Positions 4,596 to 45,169 of a DNA stretch of 64,000 nt are shown here, in pieces; positions within the stretch are counted from its first letter, which is position 1; each line of letters starts with the position of its first letter. The DNA is taken from contig JAZUNE010000007.1 in NCBI GenBank assembly GCA_045603985.1, forward strand, positions 23,202 to 87,201, written 5' to 3'. Made by a program: the position numbers and the translations under genes. This DNA is from Candidatus Nanosyncoccus sp. (GTDB lineage: Bacteria > Patescibacteriota > Saccharimonadia > Saccharimonadales > Saccharimonadaceae). The notes under the pieces are model-generated. The model worked only from the letters and a program-made list of their open reading frames with translations, was not told the origin of the DNA and ran no database searches.

Positions 4596-6950
4596 ATGAA
4601 TAGATACGAACCGCTAAAAATTGAACAAAAATGGCAAAAAATTTGGGAAGAAGAGAAACCGTTTAAGGCAAAAGACGGCGAAGATAAACCAAAAATGTTT
4701 ATCGCCGAAATGTTTCCCTATCCTTCCGGCGCCGGCCTCCATGTCGGTCATGTCCGTAACTTTACTATTGTCGACGTTCTAACGCGGTTCTATTCTCAGC
4801 AAGGTCTAAATATCTTAAGACCCTTTGGTTATGATACTTTTGGTCTTCCCGCCGAAAACTATGCCATAAAAACCGGCACCGCCCCGCAAATAGTAACAAA
4901 AACTAATATTGATAATTTTAGAAAACAAGCAAAGCGTCTCGGTTATTTTATCGACTGGTCTCGCGAAATTAATACTTCCGACCCTGAATATTATAAATGG
5001 ACTCAATGGTGCTTTTTGCAACTTTATAAAAAAGGCTTGGCTTATCAAAAAGAATCTTATCAATGGTGGTGTCCCGAAGACCAAACCGTCCTTGCTAACG
5101 AACAAGTCGAAAACGGTAAATGTTGGCGCTGTGGAGCTGAAGTCGAAAAGAAAAAAATGAAGCAATGGTTCTTTAAAATTACCGAGTATGCTGATGAGCT
5201 CCTTTCCGAAATCGACGCTCTCGACTGGCCTGAGAAAATTAAAACTATGCAAAAAAACTGGATCGGTAAAAGTACCGGCGCTGAAATTGATTTTAAGATA
5301 ATAAACTCATCTAAAAAAATTAAGGTGTTTACTACCCGCCCCGATACTATTCTCGGAGCAACATTCTTAGTAGTAGCACCAGAATATCAAGGTTTAGAGT
5401 ACATCTTGGCAGATGATTGTAAAGAGGTGGTAAAAGAATATCAAGCAGCGGCTTTGAAGAAATCAGAGATTGAAAGACAGGAGAATAAAGAGAAGACGGG
5501 AGTGTTTACAGGGGCATACGCAGTAAACCCAGCGACGAAGGAAAAAATCCCGATTTATGTTGCTGATTACGTTTTAGCCGGTTACGGAACTGGAGCGATT
5601 ATGGCCGTTCCGGCCTATGACGAACGCGATCGTGAGTTTGCTGAAAAATTTAAGCTCCCAATTATCGAAGCTGAGTTAATTGACTACGACTTTTACGGAA
5701 CCCCTAAAACAATTTATAAAATGCGCGACTGGCTAATCTCTCGCCAACGTTACTGGGGCTGCCCGATTCCGATTGCTTACGATAAAAATGGCAATCCGCA
5801 TCCAATCCCCGAGGAACAATTACCTGTTCTTATCCCCGAAGTAGAAGATTATAAACCTGATAACTCTGGACACTCTGCTCTCGCAAAAGCGACCGACTGG
5901 CTAAAAGTGAAATTATATAATGAAGATACTGGTAAAATAGAGGAAATGACTCGCGAAACCGATACTTTAGATGGCTACGCTTGTTCAAGCTGGTATCTCT
6001 GGCGTTATGTTTCCCCTCATGACACTAAATCCGCTTGGAATCCCGAAGCGATTAAGTATTGGGCCCCGACCGATATTTATGTTGGCGCGGACCATGCTGT
6101 TGCTCATTTATTATATATTCGCTTTTGGTGTAAATTCTTTGCTGATGAAGGCTACCTTCCTTTCCGCGAACCAATCAAAAAGTTAATTTATCATGGCTAT
6201 ATCAACGCTCCCGACGGGAAAAAGATGAGTAAATCTAAGGGCAACGTCATCGACCCGCTTGACGTCATCAACGACGGCTACGGCGCCGATACTCTCCGTA
6301 CCTACGAAATGTTCATCGGCCCCGTCGAACTCGACGCTGCTTGGGACCCCCGCTCCGTAGGAGGAGTTTATAGATTCCTAAACCGTTGTTGGAATTTAGT
6401 GTTTGGGACGAACACCAATGTCCTTTCTCGGGGCATAAACGACAACGGGAGTTTACGAAGCGAGGAGCCCCGTAACGACGGGCGCGACGAAGCGTCCCGA
6501 GAAAGGAACATTGGTGTTCGACACAAGATTATCAAAAAAGTTACACAAGACATCTATAAATGCAACTTCAACACCGCTGTCGCAGCTCTTATGGAGTACG
6601 TAAACGAACTTTATAAAGTCGGCGCTTCCGAAGAAGACTTAATTGTTTTAGCAAAACTCTTAAAACCTTTCGCCCCACACCTCGCCTCCGAAATGCTTGA
6701 AAAATTAAATACAACCGACGAATGGCCAACTTGGGATGAAAAATATCTTATTTCCGATACTGTCGAAATCGTTGTTCAGGTTAACGGAAAACTTCGTGCA
6801 AAACTAACTGTAAATACCGAAGATCTCGATAACGAAGAAAAAATCATCACGCTCGCGAAAGAAGACGAAAAAATTAAAAAATATATTGAAAACGGCATAA
6901 AGAAAACTATTTTCGTTAAAAAAGCTAAACTACTTAATATAGTAATATAA
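4596..6950 (+). CDS. leuS: Leucine--tRNA ligase
   Basis: 784 aa with HIGH-type (PSGAGLHVGHVRN) and KMSKS (GKKMSKSKGN) motifs and LeuS-specific blocks. Leaderless start 7 nt after TATAAT (4583-4588). Confidence 0.97.
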   Translation: MNRYEPLKIEQKWQKIWEEEKPFKAKDGEDKPKMFIAEMFPYPSGAGLHVGHVRNFTIVDVLTRFYSQQGLNILRPFGYDTFGLPAENYAIKTGTAPQIVTKTNIDNFRKQAKRLGYFIDWSREINTSDPEYYKWTQWCFLQLYKKGLAYQKESYQWWCPEDQTVLANEQVENGKCWRCGAEVEKKKMKQWFFKITEYADELLSEIDALDWPEKIKTMQKNWIGKSTGAEIDFKIINSSKKIKVFTTRPDTILGATFLVVAPEYQGLEYILADDCKEVVKEYQAAALKKSEIERQENKEKTGVFTGAYAVNPATKEKIPIYVADYVLAGYGTGAIMAVPAYDERDREFAEKFKLPIIEAELIDYDFYGTPKTIYKMRDWLISRQRYWGCPIPIAYDKNGNPHPIPEEQLPVLIPEVEDYKPDNSGHSALAKATDWLKVKLYNEDTGKIEEMTRETDTLDGYACSSWYLWRYVSPHDTKSAWNPEAIKYWAPTDIYVGADHAVAHLLYIRFWCKFFADEGYLPFREPIKKLIYHGYINAPDGKKMSKSKGNVIDPLDVINDGYGADTLRTYEMFIGPVELDAAWDPRSVGGVYRFLNRCWNLVFGTNTNVLSRGINDNGSLRSEEPRNDGRDEASRERNIGVRHKIIKKVTQDIYKCNFNTAVAALMEYVNELYKVGASEEDLIVLAKLLKPFAPHLASEMLEKLNTTDEWPTWDEKYLISDTVEIVVQVNGKLRAKLTVNTEDLDNEEKIITLAKEDEKIKKYIENGIKKTIFVKKAKLLNIVI
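6409..6520. repeat. GC-rich palindromic mini-element (copy A), in frame inside leuS
   Basis: Terminal inverted repeats at 6409-6433 and 6496-6520 are 24/25 complementary. The core contains two tandem degenerate units (AACGAC..GGG..ACGAAGCG). Confidence 0.8.
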
Positions 6951-6951
6951 A

Positions 6952-7068
6952 GCAACCAGAATAACACCTTCTCGGCGACCTGCGCGACCAACGGGGAGCG
7001 CAAAGAGCAACTGAGCCATGTAACGACAGGCGCGAAGGAGCGTGCGCCGAAAGGTGTTATTTGGTTGC
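6952..7068. repeat. GC-rich palindromic mini-element (copy B), intergenic between leuS and the GT4 gene
   Basis: Inverted repeats at 6952-6977 and 7045-7068. The core shares GAGCC..GTAACGAC.GGCGCGA..AGCGT with copy A. Confidence 0.8.
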
Positions 7069-8280
7069 AACTTTATTATATATGTTAATAAATTTATCTA
7101 GCGTTTTTTCAAAATCGTGTTCTGAAGCGATTTCTTGAGACTTCTTTGAAAATTCTTTATAAAGTTTTACGTCCGATAATATTTTTATTATTGCCTCGCT
7201 AATTTCCTCAGCCGAACCCGGTTTACATAAAAATCCATTCTCTCCATCCCGACAAACTTCTCCTACCGCTCCTTTATCTACCGCAATTAAAGGTAGTCCG
7301 ACTGCCGCCGCTTCAATTAAAACAATCCCTTGCGTTTCTATTTCCGAAGCTGTTATAAAAACATCTCCGAGTTGATAAACTTTATAAAGTTCCGGCGGCG
7401 TAATCCGCCCTAAGAAATGGATGTCCGAACAACCTTTCGCTTTTTTCATTAATCGCGCCTTATCTACGCCATCCCCTACAATAATCAATTGTATTTCATT
7501 CATCTTTAGTTTTGCTTTCAAAAATGCTTCTATAACCGTTCCGACTTTTTTCTCCGGATCTAACCGCCCTAAGCTGAGTAAAGTTTTATATTTTTTATTT
7601 AATCCATATTTTTCATAAGTCTCAACCGAAGCGCGCCCTGGCTTAAAATTTGAAAGATCAACTCCGTTCGATACCGCCGCGACTGGAACCGAAAAATCTT
7701 CGCCTTTTCCAATTAGATTAAAAATCGCTTTTTCTGTCGGCATCGTTACAAAATCACTTTTACTCTGACGATTTCTAAAATAAGCTGAAAGAACTGCGTT
7801 AGCTCCTTTTTTTGCTAATTTTGGGAGATGAAAAGATTCCGTTAAAACCTCCGGTTGGTTATGTTCCGTTGTTACGACCGGAATTCCTCTTTTTTTCGCA
7901 TACGAGACAACCGACAGCCCAATCGGATCTGAAACCTGAACATGAACTAAATCCGGCTTAAAATCATCTAGGGCTTTTTTTATCTCTAATGCCGGAAAAA
8001 CCGATACTCTAAACCCATGTTTATACCATAATCGCGAAAAACCCTTCCGGCTTTTTGGCACAGGATGTATTTGGTCTGGGTAGACTTTCGCCTCAACCGA
8101 CTTCAAATAAACCGTCTTAACCCCGTCGACTACTCGCGTATAATTTTGCCCTGTTTGCGAAGGGCATAAAACTAAAACCTCTATCCCCCGCCTTACTAAC
8201 CCTACCGCAAGATTATGCGAAAAGACCGCTACTCCATTAATTTGCGGATAATATACTGCCGTCGCAATAACTACTTTCAT
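7057..8280 (-). CDS. Glycosyltransferase family 4 (GT-B fold)
   Basis: 407 aa. N-terminal MKVVIATAVYYPQINGVA and C-terminal E..GIVLIEAAAVGLP (EX7E-type) motifs. Confidence 0.8.
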   Translation of the reverse strand: MKVVIATAVYYPQINGVAVFSHNLAVGLVRRGIEVLVLCPSQTGQNYTRVVDGVKTVYLKSVEAKVYPDQIHPVPKSRKGFSRLWYKHGFRVSVFPALEIKKALDDFKPDLVHVQVSDPIGLSVVSYAKKRGIPVVTTEHNQPEVLTESFHLPKLAKKGANAVLSAYFRNRQSKSDFVTMPTEKAIFNLIGKGEDFSVPVAAVSNGVDLSNFKPGRASVETYEKYGLNKKYKTLLSLGRLDPEKKVGTVIEAFLKAKLKMNEIQLIIVGDGVDKARLMKKAKGCSDIHFLGRITPPELYKVYQLGDVFITASEIETQGIVLIEAAAVGLPLIAVDKGAVGEVCRDGENGFLCKPGSAEEISEAIIKILSDVKLYKEFSKKSQEIASEHDFEKTLDKFINIYNKVATK

Positions 8281-9467
8281 AAACTTTTCGCTTTATCTAA
8301 TTGCGGATCACGCATCGCGTTAATATCTTCGTACGTTCGCTCGACTTCAATATCAGGCGTAATTCCCGTTTTATTAATTGACCGTTCCTTCGGCGTATAC
8401 CATTCCGCTGTCGTAACCTTTAGAACTGTTCCGCCCGATAAATTAAATAATTGTTGGACAACCCCTTTTCCATAAGTCGTCTCTCCGATAATTGTTGCTT
8501 TTCCGTAATCCTGCAGAGCCCCCGCAACAATCTCCGATGCGCTCGCTGATGAACCGTTTACTAAAACTACCGTTTTCGTATCTTTAAGTAACGCCTTACC
8601 GGAAGAAGTCGAATTCGTCGAATCGCCAAAATGTTTCGATTTTTGAATTAGAACTGTATCATTATCAATCCATAAGCTTAATAAATCCTCTGCCGCCGAA
8701 ACATAACCCCCGCCGTTACCTCGTAAATCTAAAATTACCTTCTTAACCCCCTTACCCAAAAATTCCTTCGCGAACCCTTGTACCATTGTCCCCGTATCAT
8801 CATCAAATCGCGTTACCGTAATAATCGCCGTTGACCCATCATATTCAACATATGCCGAAACATTATTAATTGTTTCGCGCTTCATCGTAAAATCTAATTC
8901 TTTCCCATCTCGAACTACCGTTACCGTTACCTCGGAACCCGTCTCTCCTCGAACCTTTTTTGCAATTTCGTCTGTCGAAAGATTGTAAACTTCCTCTCCA
9001 TCAACTTTATATAAAATATCTCCCGCGAGAATTCCCGCCTTCCTCGCCGGATTATCCGGCAAAGTTCGGAGAACCCTTACATACCCATCTCTAAGCCCCA
9101 TTTCTACTCCAATCCCACTTCCAACATTCCCATGCAAATCATCGTAAAAATCCGACGTCTCTTCCGCATCCATATAAACCGTATAAACATCCCCAAGCGA
9201 CTCTACTAGCCCTTTCTTCGCTCCCTCTATTACCTCCGCCTCAGAAATCTCCCCGTTATAGGTACTAGAAAGCTTACTATAAACCTCATTTAAAGACGCC
9301 CAGTTTATCTCCGAGTTCGCTTCTATCCCTAAAAACGATGAAGCTCCCGGAAACCATGAATTTATACCTACCCCTAAAATTACCCCGAGAATTAACGTTA
9401 CCGCCGAAGCAATAATTAAATTCCCGAAACTAGTCTTTTTTTCTTTCCACTCTACATTTTTGCTCAT
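8277..9467 (-). CDS. ctpA: Carboxy-terminal processing protease (S41 family, PDZ domain)
   Basis: 396 aa with an N-terminal TM segment, a PDZ-like block (ARKAGILAGDILYKVDG) and S41 motifs (DLRGNGGG, VLVNGSSASASEI). The 4-nt overlap with the GT4 gene suggests translational coupling. Confidence 0.85.
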   Translation of the reverse strand: MSKNVEWKEKKTSFGNLIIASAVTLILGVILGVGINSWFPGASSFLGIEANSEINWASLNEVYSKLSSTYNGEISEAEVIEGAKKGLVESLGDVYTVYMDAEETSDFYDDLHGNVGSGIGVEMGLRDGYVRVLRTLPDNPARKAGILAGDILYKVDGEEVYNLSTDEIAKKVRGETGSEVTVTVVRDGKELDFTMKRETINNVSAYVEYDGSTAIITVTRFDDDTGTMVQGFAKEFLGKGVKKVILDLRGNGGGYVSAAEDLLSLWIDNDTVLIQKSKHFGDSTNSTSSGKALLKDTKTVVLVNGSSASASEIVAGALQDYGKATIIGETTYGKGVVQQLFNLSGGTVLKVTTAEWYTPKERSINKTGITPDIEVERTYEDINAMRDPQLDKAKSL

Positions 9468-9524
9468 GTATCTATTTTATCACAAAATCTAAGCTTCCCG
9501 CTTATATTTTCTATGATTCAATTT

Positions 9525-10706
9525 TTAAAAATGAATGAAATTATACTGCCAAACCTCACCCGCCGCAATCCTACGCGAGCCGAAATCCCCATACCGCGAA
9601 ATTCCCGAATATAAATACGTTGCGTAAGCATTATTATATTCCGTTACGTTAATCGAGCCGTCCGCATTTACGCTCTCAACCCAAAATACATGCCCATACG
9701 CCCCGCCATCTACCTGTCCAATCGTATTCGGCGCTGGATTTTTATCTACCGTATATCCTAATTCCCTTGCCCGGTCATCCCAAGAATACGCATTCCCCCA
9801 CGCCGGCGCTATCCCATAATATTCATACGCCTTCCACCCCGCATAACTTACACATTCACAAACATAACCCCCAATTTTATGCCATCCATAAACATCTTCC
9901 CAATAGGTAATATACTCATCTTGTCTCCCCGGGCAATCTGCTTGCCAAGGATAAGTATTTGCTCCAGTATAAGCGCTCCCGCGATAAAGTTCTGGGTGGG
10001 CCTCCTGCTCCGCCCGCTCCGCTTCGCGTTGCGCCGCCTGCGCCGCCTTTGCGACTTCCGCATAAGCCTCCGCATCATTTTCATATTTCGCTACTAAATT
10101 TTGTTGTTCCGCTCGTTTTGCGACTAACGATTCTTTTGCCGATTGCTGTTGCGCCAGTAGTCCTTCTACTTCCGCCTTGTCCGCTTCGAGTTGCTCCTTT
10201 GTCTGTTTTATTTCCATTGCCGAAAGACTAATTTGTTCTTTTACAACCTGTTCTCGCGCCGCCTTTTCTGCTAAATCCGAAATCGAGGTCGATCCCGCTA
10301 AGATTCGAATCGGCTCCGCGTCGGATTCAAAGTGCATATTTACTAAAAGTTCTGCTAGCGCCGCCTGTTGCTCACTTAATTTAATTTCTGTTATCTCAAT
10401 TTGCTTTTTTAAAGCCTTAACCTCGGCTTCAGTCTCTGCAATCTCCGCCTCTTTACCCGCAATCTCCGCCGAAAGTTCATTTACTTTTGCTTGAAACATA
10501 TTTGCCGAACTTGCCGCTTTTGCTGCCGCTTGCGTCGCCTGTTTTTCTTTTTCTACCGCCTCTAGACATGCCGGCGAATTTTGACATGCTCGCGAAATCG
10601 CCCTTACTTCTCTACTAGAAATATACATCCCAAAAATAGAGACCATCACTAAAACTATAGCTAAAATAACTGACAAAATTCCATTTTTATTTTTAAGTAT
10701 TACCAT
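9525..10706 (-). CDS. PcsB-like secreted peptidoglycan hydrolase (coiled coil plus C-terminal CHAP domain)
   Basis: 393 aa. After a TM/signal segment comes a long Ala/Glu/Lys/Gln coiled coil, then a CHAP-like region with Cys (CECVSYAGWK) and His (GHVFWVESV). It sits next to ftsEX. Confidence 0.75.
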   Translation of the reverse strand: MVILKNKNGILSVILAIVLVMVSIFGMYISSREVRAISRACQNSPACLEAVEKEKQATQAAAKAASSANMFQAKVNELSAEIAGKEAEIAETEAEVKALKKQIEITEIKLSEQQAALAELLVNMHFESDAEPIRILAGSTSISDLAEKAAREQVVKEQISLSAMEIKQTKEQLEADKAEVEGLLAQQQSAKESLVAKRAEQQNLVAKYENDAEAYAEVAKAAQAAQREAERAEQEAHPELYRGSAYTGANTYPWQADCPGRQDEYITYWEDVYGWHKIGGYVCECVSYAGWKAYEYYGIAPAWGNAYSWDDRARELGYTVDKNPAPNTIGQVDGGAYGHVFWVESVNADGSINVTEYNNAYATYLYSGISRYGDFGSRRIAAGEVWQYNFIHF

Positions 10707-10737
10707 AACTCCATTATGGCATAAACGTTTTTAAAAA

Positions 10738-11769
10738 TCAAGATTTATTGAGATACTTCGAAACTGCTAACCTTGCTGAAACTCTTCCGATAATTATACC
10801 TACTAAAATAAAAGCTAGAAAAACTAAAATTAATTGGTTTGATTCTAAAATATTATTAATTGAATCTACGTTGATTCCATAGTTAAAAAGTTTCGGCGAT
10901 AAAACTTTAAACCCAAAGTAGGAAACCGTCCCCGCAACTAATCCCGCAATTATCCCGCAAATCTCCGCCTCGACAAGAAACGGTCCTCGAATAAAACTCT
11001 TATCTGCTCCTACTAGCTTCATCATATAAATTTCCTCTCGCCTCGAGAAAATCGCCATCCGAATCGTCGAGAAAATAATTAAAACCGAAATTACAAGAAA
11101 TACTCCCGCAAGAATAATCCCACCCGTTCTCGCAATCCTAGCCCAGGACGTAATCGTCGCAATTTCCGCTCTATTAACATCATAAGTCGGCGCCTTTTCT
11201 TTATCCGTGTATGCTCTAAAAGTTTCGTTATTCTCAACTAACTCCTTTATACTATCAAGATTATCAACATTATAAACTTTTATTCGCATTGTCGATTGCA
11301 TTTTTCCAATCATTAGCTCCGTCATCTCTTCATCTAAAATCTCTAAAATCTCGTCGCTCTCCGCATTTTCGGCCAAAAACTTCTCGTACTCTTCCTTAGA
11401 AGTCGAAACTTCAACACTCTTTATATTCGAATCTTCTTTTATTATCTCGGTCAATTTTTCTAAATTCTCCGCTGTCGTTGTCGGTTTAAAATAAATTGTA
11501 ATATCAATTTTATCTTTCATCATCTCCGCAGTATTAGTTAAAATCACACTAGCTACTACCGTTATAAATAAAATAATTAAAGTAATCGCCATTACAACCG
11601 TCGCTGCTGTTGATAACCAAATATTCCTTCCAAACCCCTTCGTCCCATACTTAACAATTCGCGCCTTTTCCCGCATAATATTTCGCTTCCGCGTTCTCTG
11701 CATCGTCTTTAAGCTTTTTTTCGAAACATTCTTTAGTTTCTTTTCTTTTTTAGTTTTTTCCACCATCAT
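10738..11769 (-). CDS. ftsX: Cell-division ABC transporter permease FtsX
   Basis: 343 aa with a basic N-terminus, TM1, a large extracellular loop and three C-terminal TM segments. It overlaps ftsE by 4 nt. Confidence 0.85.
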   Translation of the reverse strand: MMVEKTKKEKKLKNVSKKSLKTMQRTRKRNIMREKARIVKYGTKGFGRNIWLSTAATVVMAITLIILFITVVASVILTNTAEMMKDKIDITIYFKPTTTAENLEKLTEIIKEDSNIKSVEVSTSKEEYEKFLAENAESDEILEILDEEMTELMIGKMQSTMRIKVYNVDNLDSIKELVENNETFRAYTDKEKAPTYDVNRAEIATITSWARIARTGGIILAGVFLVISVLIIFSTIRMAIFSRREEIYMMKLVGADKSFIRGPFLVEAEICGIIAGLVAGTVSYFGFKVLSPKLFNYGINVDSINNILESNQLILVFLAFILVGIIIGRVSARLAVSKYLNKS

Positions 11770-12538: not shown

Positions 12539-14860
12539 TTATAACATAAGTTCAATATGAAAAGTCATATTTTTCGATTTTTGGCCCTCTGCCTGATAAA
12601 TTGTTCCCGGCGTAATTTTAACATTCGGATATTTTTCCTCTACCTCTTTTAAAGTCTCCGCATAGCTTTTTTCCGTCGTTACCGTAAGATCTTCGTAAGT
12701 CTTTTTCGCAAAATCAATTTGTTTTTTATGCGACATCTTTTCTATTACTAAATCTAAATCAATCTCGAACCCCGCAAGGTATGGCGCTAACTTAAACTCA
12801 TTCCTCACCGAATTTCTAAACTCACCAACCACTCCAATATATTCACCATCTACTAAAATCTCTGCCGAACGTTTTTTCTCAAACGGCCTCGTTTCAGCTT
12901 CTCCTCCCTTAATCGGCAAAAATTCTACTAAAACCCCAAATTCCTCTAATAATTTTGCCGCGTATTTTTTCGCTTTATAAAATGCCGTTTCTTTATTCTT
13001 TCGTTCCGCAACGATAAATCCAAGCGACATTTTTTCTACCGGTACCCCCTCCTCATTCATCCCCCACTCTTTTCGATAAACTTTATTCATTTCATAAATT
13101 GCAAACTTCTCAACCGGCAATTTTTCATTTAAATACGTTTTATCTAATAAACTCGGTACAATCGACTGTCTTATATATTGCAACTCCGGCGAAATCGAAT
13201 TAACAATTTTGTAAGAATTATCGATATCCAAATTTGCCTTCTTCAAAAGCCTCTCGCTTACAAACGAGTAAGTTAAGACTTCATTTGCTCCGAGACTTGC
13301 CATTAAATCCCTAATTTTTCGCTTCAACTCGAACATTTCGTTTTTCGAAGCCGTCCCGTGAAGCGGTAAAATCGGCTCAATATTATCATACCCTAAAAGC
13401 CTACCAACTTCCTCAATAACATCTTCCTTAATATGAATGTCCGTTCGCCACTTTGGCACTTCTATTATTAACATCTCATCATCGACGGGTCCTGCCGGCG
13501 CGACATTAAAACCAACATTCCCCAAAGTTCTTACAATTAAATCCTTATCATACTTAGTTCCTAATAAATTATTTATCTCGTCTACGCTTATCGAAATATT
13601 TATTTCTTTCATCTTTTCCGGATATTCATCTGCTACCCCAACAACTTTAAACCCTTGAGAGAGCATTTCCGCGCAAGCTTCCGCTACTATTAAAGTTTGT
13701 TCCGCTGGTTGCCCCTTCGTAAACCTAGTAATTGCCTCGCTAAAAACCCCGTGCGCCATTTGTGTTTTTCGTAAATTATAAAGACTAAACGTCGCCGACT
13801 CTAAAATTATGTTCCGTGTATTTTCATCAATTGCCGTTGCTTTTCCACCCATCGCTCCCGCGAGCGCAACCGGCTTATCGCCCGAACAAATTACAATATC
13901 ATTCTCATTTAACTCGATTTCTTTATCGTCGAGTAAAATTAACTTCTCACCCTTCTTCGCCAACCTTACCTGAATTTCCGCTTTTCCCAAGCCTCCAACC
14001 GCAACAAATTTGTCATAGTCAAACGCATGAAGCGGCTGCCCCGTAAGAAGCATCAAATAATTCGTCGTATCAACAATCGGCTCAATCGGCCTCATCCCCG
14101 ATTTACTAAGAATCGTATCTTCCCACGTCAAATACTTCTTCTTCATCTCCCCGTGCTTCTCCATCACCACCGCCGAGTATCTCTGGCAAATACCAGAATC
14201 TGCAACTTTAATGGTTAAGCCATTCGGAATTTGATTAAATTCAAGTCCCGCTGAAGAAAAATCAAATTCGAATGGCTTACCTAAAATTCCCGCAACCTCT
14301 CTTGCGAACCCAATGATACCGAAGCAATCCGGCCGATGCGTTAAAGATTTATTCTCAATCTCTAAAACTAAATCGTTCAAATCAAACACATCCGCAAGTA
14401 AATCTCCCGGTTTCGCAACTTCCGGATCAATCTCAACAATCCCCGAATGGTCATCACCAAAATCTAATTCATCCGCCCCCGCAAGCATCCCACAAGATTC
14501 ATACCCCTGCATCTTTCGTTTACCAATTACAAAAGGCGCATCTTCATTCGCCGAAGCCGGAACAATCGCCCCCGGCTTGATCCAAACCGCAAGCATCCCC
14601 TCTCTTACATTTGGCGCCCCACAGACCACCTGAACTAAACCGCCATCCCCCGTATTAACCTGACATAGCGTCAAATGTGTCTCCGGAATCTTCTCCGCTT
14701 TCTCAACCCTTACTATAACAATATTATCGTATTTATGTGTTTCGTCTATCACCCCCTCAACTTCAACTAATCTAGCCCCTATCAATCTAATTAAATCTTC
14801 ATCCGAAACCGTTTCCGGAATTTTTACATATTTCTTTAGCCAATTCAAACTAATCTTCAT
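12539..14860 (-). CDS. pheT: Phenylalanine--tRNA ligase beta subunit
   Basis: 773 aa. N-terminal MKISLNWLKKYV tRNA-binding domain, with B3/4 and B5 blocks. Lies downstream of pheS. Confidence 0.95.
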   Translation of the reverse strand: MKISLNWLKKYVKIPETVSDEDLIRLIGARLVEVEGVIDETHKYDNIVIVRVEKAEKIPETHLTLCQVNTGDGGLVQVVCGAPNVREGMLAVWIKPGAIVPASANEDAPFVIGKRKMQGYESCGMLAGADELDFGDDHSGIVEIDPEVAKPGDLLADVFDLNDLVLEIENKSLTHRPDCFGIIGFAREVAGILGKPFEFDFSSAGLEFNQIPNGLTIKVADSGICQRYSAVVMEKHGEMKKKYLTWEDTILSKSGMRPIEPIVDTTNYLMLLTGQPLHAFDYDKFVAVGGLGKAEIQVRLAKKGEKLILLDDKEIELNENDIVICSGDKPVALAGAMGGKATAIDENTRNIILESATFSLYNLRKTQMAHGVFSEAITRFTKGQPAEQTLIVAEACAEMLSQGFKVVGVADEYPEKMKEINISISVDEINNLLGTKYDKDLIVRTLGNVGFNVAPAGPVDDEMLIIEVPKWRTDIHIKEDVIEEVGRLLGYDNIEPILPLHGTASKNEMFELKRKIRDLMASLGANEVLTYSFVSERLLKKANLDIDNSYKIVNSISPELQYIRQSIVPSLLDKTYLNEKLPVEKFAIYEMNKVYRKEWGMNEEGVPVEKMSLGFIVAERKNKETAFYKAKKYAAKLLEEFGVLVEFLPIKGGEAETRPFEKKRSAEILVDGEYIGVVGEFRNSVRNEFKLAPYLAGFEIDLDLVIEKMSHKKQIDFAKKTYEDLTVTTEKSYAETLKEVEEKYPNVKITPGTIYQAEGQKSKNMTFHIELML

Positions 14861-21297: not shown

Positions 21298-22152
21298 TTA
21301 CAATGTATTTTCGGTTTCGTCAATCTCGGTTACAGTAGTTGTATCCGTTGTAGACCCAGCCCCACTTGTACTTTCTTCAGTCTCATCCGGTTCAACAATC
21401 TCTACATCTTCCTCAATCAGTTCATCCTCCGAGTCATCTACCGTTGTATTAGTAGAAGGAGTTGTTGAATTAGGTGTTGTCTGGACCTGCGTCGATGAAC
21501 TCGATGAGTTTGACGAGTTTGAGCTACTAGATCCTGTCCCATTTCCATCCATCAATTGCATAATTAATACTGCCGCAAGCGCAACTACTACCATCACCGC
21601 TACAACAATTAATAAAATTAGAGTGCTTTTACTTGTTTTCTTTTTCGCCGGCTTCATGGTTTCGCTTGTTGGATTAACTTCCGGTTGCGTCGCCGGGTCT
21701 GTGAACGAAACGCTCGGAGTTGATGAAGAGCTCGTCTTAAAAGGATCTTCAGCCGGCATCTCTGACATCGGACTAGTCGGACCAGAAACCGCTGAGCCAA
21801 TCGAACCCGGAGCCGGTTCCGCCGCTTTCATTGGCGCCTTTAACTCTTCCTCGATCGGATCCGGAGCCGGAGCCGGTTCTGGAACCATAATCGGATCAGT
21901 CGCCGCTACACCTATTCCATCGGGACGAAAAACTGGATTAGAAGGCTGCGCCCCGCCTGGCGTTACTACTGGATTAATCGGATTCGCCGTCGGAGTAGGT
22001 ACTACAGGAGCTGGAGCTGGCGATACTGCTGGCTCCGGAGTAGCCGGAGCTGGCGCAACCGGAGTCGCTTCAACCGGATTAGCCGGCGTAGGCGTAGGTG
22101 CCGGATTCGGCGTTGGATTTGGTGTTGGTGTTGGATTAATCGTTGGATCCAT
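21298..22152 (-). CDS. Pro/Thr/Ser-rich low-complexity membrane protein
   Basis: 284 aa. N-terminal PTPxP repeats, one central TM (LILLIVVAVMVVVALAAVLIM) and a Ser/Thr/Glu-rich C-terminus. Lies in an operon with metG. Confidence 0.5.
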   Translation of the reverse strand: MDPTINPTPTPNPTPNPAPTPTPANPVEATPVAPAPATPEPAVSPAPAPVVPTPTANPINPVVTPGGAQPSNPVFRPDGIGVAATDPIMVPEPAPAPDPIEEELKAPMKAAEPAPGSIGSAVSGPTSPMSEMPAEDPFKTSSSSTPSVSFTDPATQPEVNPTSETMKPAKKKTSKSTLILLIVVAVMVVVALAAVLIMQLMDGNGTGSSSSNSSNSSSSSTQVQTTPNSTTPSTNTTVDDSEDELIEEDVEIVEPDETEESTSGAGSTTDTTTVTEIDETENTL

Positions 22153-22269
22153 TTTTCTTCCTTTATTTATAAATTAAGTTCTAGATTCTTTATTTTATTT
22201 TAACGCTTATCCTATTTTTTCGCAAGCCCGATATTTAATTTTTAAAAAGCTTATGCTATAATTATATAT

Positions 22270-23201: not shown

Positions 23202-24692
23202 TTACAGGAGCGATTGCATATAAAGCATTAATTCTTCTTTTATAAAATCGTCCGTTACTTTCTCAAGCTCAACCATAAACTTCGGCGCCTGCCTCTTTAA
23301 TCGCTCCTGTCGATATTCCTCATATCGAGCCATTTCTTCTTCCGCTAATGTTTCCGGAAAATTTCGCCCCTTGTAATGAAGCAAAAGCTCCGGCAACCTC
23401 GGGTCATGAAACTCCGGATGAAAATCCGCTAGCTTGTTCACTTCTGCATTCCTTACCGCTGAAACCTTAACCCTGTCAGTATCGTCTAAAAACCCCTCAT
23501 ATAACGCCGTTTCCGGCTCAACTGCCGGCGGAAATTCCGGCCGATTTTCATATCCACTTCGCATCTGCTCCGCAAATTCCGGATGAGATAATAGTGCCTC
23601 TAAGTTCCTCTGCACTATCTCTTTCGTTAATCCAATCTTCCCCCAACCGCCATTACTTTCTAGCACACTTATCGGCGCCACGGCCGGACATTTATTGAAG
23701 CATAATTCTTTTACAATTGGGAAATATGATGAATGTGTGGCTAAAATCTGCTTTTTCTGAGACTTATTCTGATTTGAATTTTCAACACGTATATTCCTGA
23801 CGTGCCCGAGAGGTTCGTCCCGAAGGGACGGTTCTCCCGGTGCACCAGCGTATGACGTGCTTGAAAATTCAAGTCCTGTCGAAGAAAAAGCAGATTTAGC
23901 CATTAATTCATCAAAATTATATCTTAAATCATATATTAATATATTCCCATTCCGCGAGCTCGTAAGCGGAAAAGCTACGGTGGTTTTATTAAATTCCGAC
24001 GAATATCTCCCTGAAGCATAAACAAACGGCTTTTTATTATCTAGATTAACTAACTTCTTCACTTCTTTTTTATCCCGCATTTTATATAAATATTCGAACA
24101 GTTTCGGTTGCTTCTCTTTTACCATTTTCGCAACCGCAATCGTCGCATAAACATCCGAAAGCGCATCGTGCGCATGTTCATGTGAGAGTCCGTTTAATTT
24201 AGTTAATAATTCTAGCCGATTTGTCGCTTTCCCGTCTTCCGTAACCGGCCACTCTATCCCCTCCGGTCTAAGCGCCCGTGTTAACCTAACTACGTCTAGC
24301 ATGTCCCATCTCGACCGCCCCTCTTTCCACTCCCACTCATACGGATCATAAAAATTCCGCCATAAACAAGCCCGCATAAACTCATCATCAAATCTCACCG
24401 TATTATATCCAACCGCAACCGTCTCCGGTACAAAAATCTCCTCCGAAATATACCGACAAAATTCCGCCTCTTTTATCCCGTCCCTTAAGGTATCCTGCGG
24501 AGTAATCCCCGTTACATTAATTGCTGAAGGACTTGGCAAAGCGTCATCCGTCATTTTTACTAAAATATTTACCGGCTCCCCAATCGGCTCTAAATCTAAG
24601 CTTGTCCTCTGCCCCGCAAATTGCATAACCCGATCCACTCTCGGATTAAGCCCGCTCGTCTCTAAATCATAAAAGAAAAAACTTTTCCCCAT
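23202..24692 (-). CDS. sbcB: Exodeoxyribonuclease I
   Basis: N-terminal FFFYDLETSGLNP...QFAG DEDD exonuclease motif and the H..HDALSDV motif. 496 aa, including a 33-aa palindromic-element insert. Confidence 0.85.
   Translation of the reverse strand: MGKSFFFYDLETSGLNPRVDRVMQFAGQRTSLDLEPIGEPVNILVKMTDDALPSPSAINVTGITPQDTLRDGIKEAEFCRYISEEIFVPETVAVGYNTVRFDDEFMRACLWRNFYDPYEWEWKEGRSRWDMLDVVRLTRALRPEGIEWPVTEDGKATNRLELLTKLNGLSHEHAHDALSDVYATIAVAKMVKEKQPKLFEYLYKMRDKKEVKKLVNLDNKKPFVYASGRYSSEFNKTTVAFPLTSSRNGNILIYDLRYNFDELMAKSAFSSTGLEFSSTSYAGAPGEPSLRDEPLGHVRNIRVENSNQNKSQKKQILATHSSYFPIVKELCFNKCPAVAPISVLESNGGWGKIGLTKEIVQRNLEALLSHPEFAEQMRSGYENRPEFPPAVEPETALYEGFLDDTDRVKVSAVRNAEVNKLADFHPEFHDPRLPELLLHYKGRNFPETLAEEEMARYEEYRQERLKRQAPKFMVELEKVTDDFIKEELMLYMQSLL
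23774..23872. repeat. GC-rich palindromic mini-element (copy C), in frame inside sbcB
   Basis: Arms at 23774-23790 and 23855-23872 (TTGAATTTTCAA(G)CACGT) are 17/18 complementary. There is an inner CGTCCC-GAA-GGGACG hairpin. The length is 99 bp, or 33 codons. Confidence 0.75.
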
Positions 24693-44759: not shown

Positions 44760-45169
44760 TGCTATACTTCGGTCACTGGCAATGAGAAAAGTTTCAAGGT
44801 CCCCGGTATTGTCATTTATGCCTCGGACTATGAGCCAATAAAACAGAGGCTCACATAAATGACTCTAATAATTTAATTAAAGGAGTCTTTTATGAAAAAC
44901 TTTAACAAAAATAAAACAGAACAAGTCGAAGTTATGGCGCTCTTCGGGTACGAAATGACGCCTTGCCAACCGCTGACTTTTCGGCGAAGAGGCGAGAGCG
45001 AGACCGAAGTGTCAGAGTTGCTCCGAACGCAAATTCGCTTTGCGGGTGGGGTAGCGATGCACATTTTCGACGTTCTGGTTGGTCGGGAACAAATGACGCT
45101 CGAATTCAATTCGCGCGATCTTTCCTGGCACCTCACACAATAGGAAACGGCCCTTCGGGGCCATTTTCT
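44760..45169 (+). other. GC-rich, hairpin-rich island containing an SD-led 83-aa ORF (44892-45143) and ending in an intrinsic terminator; coding versus structured RNA is unresolved
   Basis: TGCTATACT -10-like box at 44760-44768. Nested hairpins at 44813-44865. AAAGGAG lies 6 nt before the ATG at 44892. Three long ORFs overlap on both strands, so the island is stop-codon-poor. An 18-nt direct repeat sits at 44944-44961 and 45083-45099. Terminator GGCCC-TTCG-GGGCC plus T-tract at 45149-45169. Confidence 0.35.

Follow-up and report, generated by a model that had tools for sequence, protein, structure and literature searches.

Rickettsia palindromic elements (RPEs) are palindromic repeats of approximately 100-170 bp that form several families and often lie in frame in housekeeping ORFs (PMC10969869, PMC3733652). 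Intragenic REPs tagged with CGTC or GTAG are concentrated in genes of DNA synthesis and repair (uvrABCD, recBCD, polA and the genes of error-prone polymerases) and, likewise, in genes for tRNA synthetases and for tRNA modification (Di Nocera et al. 2013, PMC3733652). In the searchable literature on Saccharibacteria, Patescibacteria and the Candidate Phyla Radiation, no description of palindromic, MITE or in-frame elements was found.

A GC-rich palindrome inside sbcB, the gene of exonuclease I (ExoI), was studied in a 64-kb stretch of DNA (the window) from Candidatus Nanosyncoccus (Saccharibacteria). It is very probably one in-frame copy of an RPE-like family of non-autonomous, hairpin-shaped mobile (selfish) DNA of Saccharibacteria. 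As in RPEs, a palindrome of approximately 100-170 bp that folds into a long hairpin, dispersed copies and in-frame, fold-compatible insertion were all found. The likeness, especially to the RPE-1 type of approximately 150 bp, covers size, the existence of several families, dispersal in unrelated genes, in-frame sites compatible with the protein fold, the lack of a known transposase and a host-dependent bacterial host with a small genome. In contrast to RPEs, the element belongs to another phylum, within the Candidate Phyla Radiation, and it is likened to them by description and not by sequence. Moreover, its sub-families with differing arms have a common 72-nt core with invariant internal loops, and at the loops of sbcB, pheT and leuS different Saccharibacteria families have accumulated, with nested insertions. 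The RPE phenomenon, that is, selfish in-frame palindromes in essential genes, would thus be extended to the Candidate Phyla Radiation.

With the CGTC/GTAG REPs, the element has in common a spectrum of host genes rich in replication and repair functions. Its core also contains a conserved CGTC, or TGTC as a variant, and no transposase is known for it, just as CGTC REPs lack a dedicated one. However, REP units have 20-40 nt with one stem of 8-9 bp, a loop of 4-5 nt and a CCA tail, and in CGTC-tagged REPs an unpaired CGTC or TGTC tag stands at one end of this short stem-loop, whereas the Saccharibacteria element is a compound hairpin of approximately 165 nt with three helices, inside which the CGTC motifs lie and are in part paired. 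An enrichment of intragenic palindromes in repair genes, so far unexplained, recurs in an unrelated phylum, which makes the old question of how and why such elements move more tractable.

The palindrome and its host protein

The following features of the sbcB locus are referred to below (strand given where one was assigned).

23202-24692, minus strand: sbcB (exonuclease I), host gene, 496 aa, frame intact on either side of the insert (ORF, Pfam, PDB, Foldseek)
23717-23925: entire hairpin formed locally, its outermost arms being particular to the sbcB locus (folding)
23738-23902, minus strand: proposed mobile unit (Family A element), approximately 165 nt, codons A265-A318 (A2 alignment, consensus hairpin, BLAST matches to L043 pheT and L030 pheT)
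23774-23872: inner 99-nt palindrome, with the limits of the preliminary description (arm matching and folding)
23816-23830: tip hairpin CGTCCC-GAA-GGGACG, variable in sequence between copies with pairing retained (pairs 57:70, 58:69, 59:68)

The palindrome was present where the preliminary description had placed it. The arms 23774-23790 and 23855-23872, given there as complementary, are so with the exception of one extra G, and the predicted tip was found at its position. The stretch from 23774 to 23872 comprises 99 nt, and the sbcB frame passes through it and encodes LEFSSTSYAGAPGEPSLRDEPLGHVRNIRVENS. Local GC content is 0.57 at the palindrome vs 0.41 for the window. For a 119-nt stretch, the folding energy was -50.9 kcal/mol (z = -7.0) when the sense strand was folded and -55.9 kcal/mol (z = -8.1) for the plus strand, and none of 200 shuffled sequences matched either value. 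Two further nested arm pairs surround the inner palindrome, the outer one (23744-23763/23878-23897) being 90% complementary and the outermost one (23722-23745/23895-23918) 79%. The full hairpin, at approximately 23717-23925, reached -101.3 kcal/mol (z = -12.3). Folding of the palindrome is therefore far beyond chance, with z from -7 to -12.

The size of 99 bp, or 33 codons, which had been proposed for the unit was too small. The part common to other copies corresponds to 23738-23902 (alignment A2 plus consensus hairpin, columns 24-194), so that the actual unit is approximately 162-165 nt, or 54-55 codons (A265-A318). The whole unit is an imperfect palindrome, and terminal inverted repeats are thus present. 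According to an early idea, the 5' arm was native sbcB sequence and the 3' arm an inverted copy of it; this was revised after copies in pheT were compared, as the pair GCTGAxCCTGCTTTTTC...GAAAAAGCAGGxTxCAGC occurs in them and is part of the element. Specificity to the locus is confined to the outermost arms (GAACGGGT.../...ACCCGTTC in sbcB, AAATTT.../...AAATTT in pheT).

The claim that a palindromic element lies in frame in exonuclease I was borne out by the open frame and by Pfam matches on both sides. RNase_T covers residues 7-187 of SbcB, and the ExoI C-terminal family is broken into two stretches. ExoI structures in the PDB matched SbcB at E = 1e-92 to 1e-107, and in Foldseek the SbcB model matched 4js4/1fxx (E. 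coli ExoI) with a TM score of 0.82. The insert site is a loop in the SH3-like region. Judging from the open reading frames, the insert is a multiple of three and free of stops, and hence gives a read-through segment of approximately 55 residues. Residues 267-323 are predicted by AlphaFold to be disordered (pLDDT approximately 26-28) between ordered flanks. The position of the insert is thus predicted to be compatible with the protein fold, with the surrounding ExoI fold left intact. One example of a peptide predicted from the insert is SAFSSTGLEFSSTSYAGAPGEPSLR.

Dispersed copies and the conserved core

Two features are needed here.

14216-14279, minus strand: pheT remnant of a Family A copy after deletion, FDFSSAGLEFNQ, within a local palindrome (repeat D16; 25 of 25 nt identical to the L002 sbcB element); full copies occupy this site in L030 and L043
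23787-23858, minus strand: 72-nt core of the sbcB element, ACGTCATAC...AGAACCG-tip-CGAACCT...CGTCAGGAATATACGT, with invariant internal loops and covarying stems (alignment A3, 61 copies)

The pheT copies of two related genomes, L043 and L030, found by BLAST, are 77-85% identical to the sbcB element across 138-171 nt, and across different genes and genomes the unit of approximately 165 nt is 77-94% identical. A DNA pattern scan of metagenomes yielded 62 copies in 61 loci, in both orientations. The scan pattern imposed GTCATAC, AGAACCG and CGAACCT, so that the invariance of these strings in those copies is built in; the 3' GGAATATAC and CGTC lay outside the pattern, and copies found by BLAST have the same invariants. 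The host organisms are Saccharibacteria, and the element ranges over more than 20 unrelated genes plus intergenic DNA. In-frame hosts confirmed by Pfam, with domains flanking the insert on both sides, were PolA, TopA, UvrA, UvrC, UvrD (four cases), RecG, RecJ, DnaX, Fpg and DinB, and further a DEAD/ResIII helicase, LepA, Der, MnmA (two cases) and YchF; replication and repair proteins made up 14 of these 19. Every copy within an ORF leaves the frame open and has a length divisible by three. Such inserts can mislead homology-based annotation, structure prediction and marker-gene phylogenies.

One topA gene (L136) contains two copies with sharp boundaries, which give a unit of approximately 170 nt. 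No target-site duplication was visible at these two copies, the only sharp-ended pair. No transposase was adjacent to an intergenic copy in L130, whose neighbours are uppS and an rseP-like gene. In sbcB-centred loci totalling 1.5 Mb, a covariance model detected 10 copies; in the 64-kb window it detected one, at 23766-23884, with 115.6 bits. Copy number is low in the Nanosyncoccus clade, and recent activity there is not supported.

The core is part of a compound hairpin of three helices and two conserved internal loops, TCATAC/AGGAATATAC and AAC/AAC. It also contains two CGTC motifs: one on the 5' side, with a TGTC variant, and an invariant one preceding AGGAATATAC. In 61 copies, 96.1% of the stem cells were paired, vs 77.1% after shuffling (reached in 0 of 500 trials), and pairing dropped to 34-42% when partners were slid. 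Changes on both sides of a pair were counted in 327 cells vs 94 expected; several pairs occurred in each of the four Watson-Crick types and were never broken. The core is conserved, and the stems and outer arms covary. Wobble pairs gave mixed evidence on the functional strand: the G.T at 48:79 (top strand) is conserved, whereas, read on the opposite strand, the C.A mismatches of the CATAC/ATATA loop would become G.T pairs. Strand specificity was therefore not argued from them. Compensatory changes could also result from template-switch correction of quasipalindromes instead of selection.

An RNA structure acting in cis in the sbcB mRNA and maintained by selection for its regulatory effect on sbcB, be it as an RNase III site, as a stabiliser or as a translation brake, would be consistent with the very stable fold, the strong covariation, the conservation of unpaired nucleotides and of the G.U at pair 48:79, and the sense orientation of about three quarters of the intra-ORF copies. 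However, the element also occurs antisense, in intergenic DNA and in genes unrelated to sbcB. Its orientation follows the G-rich strand even when antisense to the host gene: of 62 copies, 54 had the top strand of the element on the G-rich strand, among them 8 of the 10 antisense-hosted ones, and the window agreed with this, GC skew being a mere proxy for replication direction. A search of the window against Rfam gave only tRNAs at gathering score and nothing relevant at E <= 10 around the element. Regulation of sbcB is therefore an improbable explanation, and a side effect of the hairpin on mRNA stability or translation is possible.

Variation and proposed history of the element at the sbcB site

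In 120 SbcB orthologues and approximately 88 loci, the loop is 9-93 aa long. It has 69 aa in SbcB of the window, approximately 12-15 aa in the state lacking an insert and only approximately 30 residues in solved ExoI structures. The element is absent from most Saccharibacteria SbcB orthologues, in agreement with the lineage specificity that had been anticipated, and the peptide was never encountered without the inverted repeat, which would have counted against that description. Such inserts explain much of the variation in protein length in Saccharibacteria (427-519 aa in SbcB, 933-1004 aa in UvrA).

Every copy forms one long hairpin, of -84 to -112 kcal/mol. In some orthologues the reading frame through the element is shifted; L003/P0013 carries 2 extra nt in the tip and 1 extra nt within the 3' arm, which changes the peptide and leaves the hairpin unchanged. 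In one lineage a second palindrome is nested within the element. In another SbcB an antisense copy occupies the identical loop, and in further orthologues several unrelated palindromes do so. A series of decay was also seen, L001 retaining both termini only and L008 the 5' terminus only.

A functional, lineage-specific protein insert in SbcB, for example an interaction loop, with incidental palindromy of the DNA, would account for the open frame in all carriers and for the peptide AGLEFSSTSYAG...RNIRVENSN, which is repeated in several orthologues. This reading is already largely refuted and has very little probability left, as the same DNA is found in unrelated genes and both orientations, the frame-shifted carriers have another peptide with the hairpin kept, the stems are compensated at the nucleotide level, the segment is predicted to be disordered, and it is mostly deleted in the closest relatives. 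Considering the excess of pairing, the compensatory cells and the frame-shifted orthologues, it may be concluded that the conserved entity is the nucleic acid and not the peptide. Searches with the 53-aa peptide returned just 4 short ORFs from an index of 5.8 billion proteins, a result bounded by the word index and no census, and 22 matches among 1.84 billion representatives, a set likewise not suited to a census; the DNA pattern scan told much more than either.

The locus-specific outermost arms, which look as if the palindrome had grown into its flank, and the unrelated palindromes in the same loop would fit a palindrome that formed where it lies, without mobility, through template switching or through fold-back repair of a fragile loop. 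Extended arms, compensatory changes and deletions in the centre may have come about in this way; it does not explain the origin of a unit that recurs between different genes and genomes at the identity given above, with a core common to 62 sites in many genes. Because of these dispersed copies, in-place origin is refuted as the sole explanation, and it is highly improbable. Equally hard to credit is an intein, intron or translational-bypass element removed before the mature protein, suggested by in-frame insertion into a housekeeping gene and by a GC-rich hairpin in an AT-rich gene, as in mitochondrial bypass elements, since the 54-57 aa are below intein size (at least approximately 130 aa), there are no conserved peptide blocks and frame variants encode different peptides, neither an intron nor a ribozyme family matched, and open intra-ORF copies in multiples of three would be needless if bypassed or spliced.

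In the SH3-like region, the unit of approximately 165 nt occupies a loop that is permissive and hypervariable. On the mobile-element reading, it would have been inserted there before the divergence of a Candidatus Nanosyncoccus species clade and inherited vertically thereafter. Later, compensatory changes would have arisen in the stems, internal frame shifts would have been restored to +3 overall in some lineages, a second palindrome would have nested in one lineage, and central parts would have been deleted in the closest relatives. The in-frame state would reflect selection, with gene-breaking copies in needed genes being lost. Movement probably proceeded via a single-stranded hairpin form, and a putative trans-acting enzyme would recognise the invariant loops of the core (TCATAC/AGGAATATAC, AAC/AAC) and the CGTC tags. 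Orientation would follow the G-rich strand as the lagging-strand template, and not the strand of the host gene.

The proposed recognition of imperfect hairpins, the lack of an obvious target-site duplication at the L136 copies and an orientation biased to one replication strand, for which IS608 is the comparison, are likenesses to the single-strand transposition of IS200/IS605 and its miniature derivatives (REP/RAYT, PATE). However, elements of that type carry a distinct hairpin at the left end and another at the right end, whereas one long palindrome is present here. MITEs (Correia/NEMIS, ERIC, RUP, Nezha) are similarly short and non-autonomous, with inverted-repeat ends and hairpin folding, and are occasionally in frame. 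In contrast to them, the Saccharibacteria element has no target-site duplication visible at the L136 copies and no known parent insertion sequence, none having been noticed in 1.9 Mb of loci, is GC-rich in an AT-rich genome, is wholly palindromic and is conserved at its centre, not at its termini. The family is informative in that it combines a sharp core, covariation, strand bias, insertion hot spots, nesting and a decay series. It is a rather doubtful further suggestion that the 72-nt core is the recognition module of an undescribed single-strand, fork-coupled transposition system of Saccharibacteria, or a functional RNA, and that the preference for repair genes, seen also in RPE/REP-type elements, is due to targeting, or to selection for an effect on repair capacity, beyond tolerance.

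Other palindrome families at the same sites

Two further palindromes of the window lie at leuS.

6402-6520, plus strand: palindrome belonging to another family, inserted in frame in leuS (repeat/fold analysis, locus comparison); L142 has a Family A copy at the same LeuS site
6950-7070, plus strand: palindromic element just past the leuS stop codon, intergenic, copy B of the preliminary description (repeat/fold analysis)

It had been suggested that the sbcB palindrome is related to these elements or belongs to a parallel family. No kinship in sequence could be detected: BLAST gave no cross-match, shared 7-8-mers were at the level expected by chance, and homology with the two leuS elements was dropped for lack of a BLAST match. 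The wording of a parallel element family was right, since in another organism, L142, an sbcB-type copy occupies this very site in LeuS, and a leuS-type core was found in a topA gene that also bears two sbcB-type copies. The sbcB, pheT and leuS sites host other palindrome families too.

Extent and core of the palindrome in sbcB

The preliminary description placed an in-frame palindrome of 99 nt in the exonuclease I (ExoI) gene sbcB. Its arms, 23774-23790 and 23855-23872, were confirmed to be complementary, one extra G excepted, and the GC-rich core was found to form the proposed hairpin, with the tip CGTCCC-GAA-GGGACG. The 99 nt were indeed in frame, within a minus-strand ORF of 496 aa, and encode the peptide LEFSSTSYAGAPGEPSLRDEPLGHVRNIRVENS. 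The boundaries had to be corrected, since two further nested arm pairs were located outside them. The stretch common to the sbcB and pheT copies (codons A265-A318 of sbcB) was designated the Family A unit; arms beyond it were locus-specific.

Features of the window
23202-24692, minus strand: sbcB host ORF, 496 aa
23717-23925 (approximate): full local hairpin with nested arms, from folding
23738-23902: Family A unit, ~165 nt, stretch shared by sbcB and pheT copies
23774-23872: inner 99-nt palindrome of the preliminary description
23787-23858: 72-nt conserved core, from the alignment of 61 copies
23816-23830: tip hairpin CGTCCC-GAA-GGGACG
6402-6520: leuS-type palindrome, in frame in leuS
6950-7070: leuS-type palindrome, immediately downstream of leuS (both leuS-type palindromes GC-rich)

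The GC content was 0.57 at the palindrome versus 0.41 in the window. For a 119-nt stretch, the folding energy was -50.9 kcal/mol (z = -7.0) for the sense strand and -55.9 kcal/mol (z = -8.1) for the + strand, and in each case 0/200 shuffles folded as well. The full local hairpin reached -101.3 kcal/mol (z = -12.3).

The 72-nt core, defined by aligning 61 Family A copies, consisted of ACGTCATAC, a stem, AGAACCG, a variable tip hairpin, CGAACCT, a stem and CGTCAGGAATATACGT. In these copies, 96.1% of the stem cells were paired, compared with 77.1% in shuffles (0/500 reached the observed value) and 34-42% in slid controls, and 327 cells were altered on both sides versus 94 expected. In three stem pairs, each of the four Watson-Crick types was represented and no more than one cell was broken. 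The unpaired loops TCATAC, AGGAATATAC and AAC/AAC were invariant in the 61 copies, part of this invariance, that of GTCATAC, AGAACCG and CGAACCT, being imposed by the search pattern. That pattern included neither GGAATATAC nor the 3' CGTC, and copies found by BLAST carried identical invariants. Invariance of these loops is an argument for a specific, putative factor that recognises them. Sub-families shared the core and differed in their outer arms, with the peptides SAGLEFSSTSY, SDPSVSETSY and SADLPKKMSY. Inspection of the consensus core showed three of three sense frames and two of three antisense frames to be open.

Several carriers among the SbcB orthologues (P0010, P0012, P0013 and others) had ...GPPAEPPASQANLSGSSGIYVPEFSNH in place of ...APGEPSLRDEPLGHVRNIRVENSN. 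In the DNA of one comparison locus, L003, 2 nt were added at the tip and 1 nt in the 3' arm (+3 overall); these indels shift the frame of the middle, which accounts for the differing peptide in some carriers, and the hairpin is retained. Two-sided changes were found among the copies both in the arms (TTGAATTTTCAAGCACGT/ACGTGTTGAAAATTCAA versus TTGAAAAATCAGGAACGT/ACGTCCCTGATTTTTCAA) and at the tip (CGTCCC/GGGACG versus CGCCTGC/GCAGGCG). Judged from these sequences, the conserved entity is the hairpin, not the peptide. Compensatory changes of this kind can arise by selection for the hairpin, on which mobility or DNA stability may depend, or by template-switch correction between the arms.

The exonuclease I loop as an insertion site

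The window ORF matched the Pfam family RNase_T at residues 7-187, and its match to the ExoI C-terminal Pfam family was broken into two stretches by the insert. Solved ExoI structures were matched in two blocks (query 4-262 and 327-466; E = 1e-92 to 1e-107). In an AlphaFold model from 32 orthologues, residues 267-323 had a pLDDT of ~26-28 and no secondary structure between ordered flanks; superposition of the model on E. coli ExoI gave a TM of 0.82. The catalytic motifs were invariant in the orthologue alignment. On the basis of the pLDDT values, the structure matches and these motifs, the insert protrudes from an otherwise normal ExoI as a segment predicted to be disordered.

The source organism is a ruminant-gut Saccharibacterium of the Candidatus Nanosyncoccus group; the closest species representative was 90% identical and carried this insert too. 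Among the best 120 SbcB hits and 88 fetched loci, the loop between YDLR and (V/I)KELC varied from 9 to 93 residues. Loops of up to 30 residues folded weakly (0 to -19 kcal/mol), except for a remnant in L001 (-33), and most loops of at least 32 residues were long GC-rich hairpins (-43 to -109 kcal/mol). These hairpins belonged to several unrelated sequence families, labelled A to E, that of the window being A; B, C and D were checked at the DNA level in L005, L007 and L006, respectively. In L088 (9661-9813), the loop was filled by an AT-rich tandem repeat (QSQSKLP, three times) with no palindrome; thus, other kinds of expansion are also tolerated there.

The window's two closest relatives lacked the element centre. 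L001 retained both unit termini and L008 only the 5' terminus, as if an ancestral copy had undergone central deletions. In the SbcB gene of L004, a second GC-rich palindrome (1275-1375, peptide DQSSAGRRLDTKRKRFVHSAPTAV; 83.5% identical to L098:609-687) was nested in the 3' half of the Family A core. Therefore, insertion of elements into elements is possible.

Copies in pheT and other genes

When all inserts were compared by BLAST with 1.54 Mb of loci, full Family A copies were found in pheT of L043 (11441-11611) and L030 (17911-18065), 77-85% identical over 138-171 nt, in frame and in the same gene-relative orientation as in sbcB. At the same site, the window pheT contained a deletion remnant (14237-14268, FDFSSAGLEFNQ), which matched the L002 sbcB element at 25/25 nt and lay within a local palindrome, 14216-14279 (AAGCCATTCGAATTTGATT...AATCAAATTCCGAATGGCTT). 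A second hot spot of insertion is the pheT loop following GFAREVAGILG, which has 30-35 aa without and 64-73 aa with an insert. The non-Family A sbcB insert of L025 was 94.5% identical to an L043 pheT segment, and the HTQGRSA(K/E)LTVL family occurred in both genes. Family A is low-copy in Nanosyncoccus: with a covariance model, the 1.5 Mb of sbcB-centred loci yielded 10 copies, 8 of them in sbcB and 2 in pheT, and the 64-kb window yielded one.

A metagenome scan with a pattern from the conserved Family A positions yielded 62 copies in 61 loci: ~30 sense within long ORFs, ~10 antisense and the remainder in short ORFs or intergenic. Hosts named by Pfam were PolA, TopA (a single gene with two copies), UvrA, UvrC, UvrD/PcrA (four), RecG, RecJ, DnaX, Fpg, a Y-family polymerase, a DEAD/ResIII helicase, LepA, Der, MnmA (two) and YchF. 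BLAST to the window proteins added Dus, a LeuS fragment (L142) and an SbcB of 68% identity whose copy, in the same loop, was antisense. The UvrA host is annotated by NCBI as Candidatus Saccharibacteria; among its relatives, insert-free proteins had 933-937 aa and insert-bearing ones up to 1004 aa.

The two copies in topA of L136 had sharp ends ~170 nt apart and were palindromic along their full length; no obvious target-site duplication was seen at either. This topoisomerase I gene (7898-10759) also held one leuS-type copy (...TEPRNDGREGVVREG...), giving three palindromic inserts.

The preliminary description had suggested kinship between the sbcB and leuS elements. No homology was detectable, and what stood was the notion of parallel families: Family A and the leuS-type palindromes use common sites, the L142 copy lying at the LeuS position of the window's leuS element. 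Most of the catalytic domain was seemingly absent from the L142 LeuS-like ORF (321-1307), which may represent a pseudogene or result from faulty assembly and is to be treated cautiously as a host. The in-frame leuS-type palindrome of the window encodes ...SLRSEEPRNDGRDEASRER..., and its core was found in topA (L136:8763-8785, 23/23 nt) and, at 84% over 37 nt, in L098.

Relation to known elements and strand orientation

The best-supported reading is that Family A is a non-autonomous palindromic mobile element resembling Rickettsia palindromic elements (RPEs), and the earlier interpretation was largely right. A copy would have entered the permissive sbcB loop in an ancestor of the Nanosyncoccus clade and would then have been read through as a disordered loop, surviving because its length was a multiple of three and it had no stop codon. 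The closest parallel is that of RPEs, for which in-frame integration into numerous unrelated genes has been described (PMC10969869). A second parallel is provided by intragenic GTAG/CGTC-tagged REPs, which are concentrated in uvrABCD, recBCD, polA, error-prone polymerase and tRNA synthetase/modification genes (Di Nocera et al. 2013, PMC3733652); Family A hosts are concentrated in the same kinds of genes. RPE termini are CGTC (or TGTC), and CGTC REPs have no dedicated transposase (PMC3733652). In the Family A core, CGTC/TGTC is present on the 5' side and the CGTC on the 3' side is invariant; the core was kept outside the REP superfamily because its compound architecture is unlike a REP unit. 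No Rfam match to Family A was obtained, and the literature searched contained no description of elements like these from Saccharibacteria or the Candidate Phyla Radiation. The family is of interest because it comes from a new phylum, has a conserved core that is unusually well defined, uses insertion hot spots and shows, once more, a preference for DNA-repair genes.

The GC skew of the window + strand was uniformly and strongly negative (-0.07 to -0.38 per 4 kb) and still slightly negative (-0.03) across leuS, which is coded on that strand. Therefore, the minus strand is G-rich, the whole window lies on one replichore and the element top strand (sbcB sense) is on the G-rich strand. The top strand was also on the contig's G-rich strand in 54 of the 62 metagenome copies, including 8 of the 10 that were antisense to the host gene. 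Normally, it is the leading-strand sequence, i.e., the lagging-strand template, that is G-rich. These counts, from short contigs with GC skew as a proxy for replication direction, are only suggestive of an orientation set by replication rather than transcription, as has been reported for IS200/IS605 elements.

Two other window regions folded strongly. The intergenic stretch 44936-45105, between dus-like and Mur-ligase-like genes (-44 to -50 kcal/mol per 120 nt), was 80% identical over 169 nt to L025:211-378; since it had no Rfam match, it may be an undescribed small RNA. Region 21298-22177, a Pro/Thr/Ala-rich low-complexity ORF (284 aa) overlapped by a long antisense ORF, was among the window's strongest folds (-42 to -52 kcal/mol per 120 nt, GC ~0.6) and formed no single palindrome.
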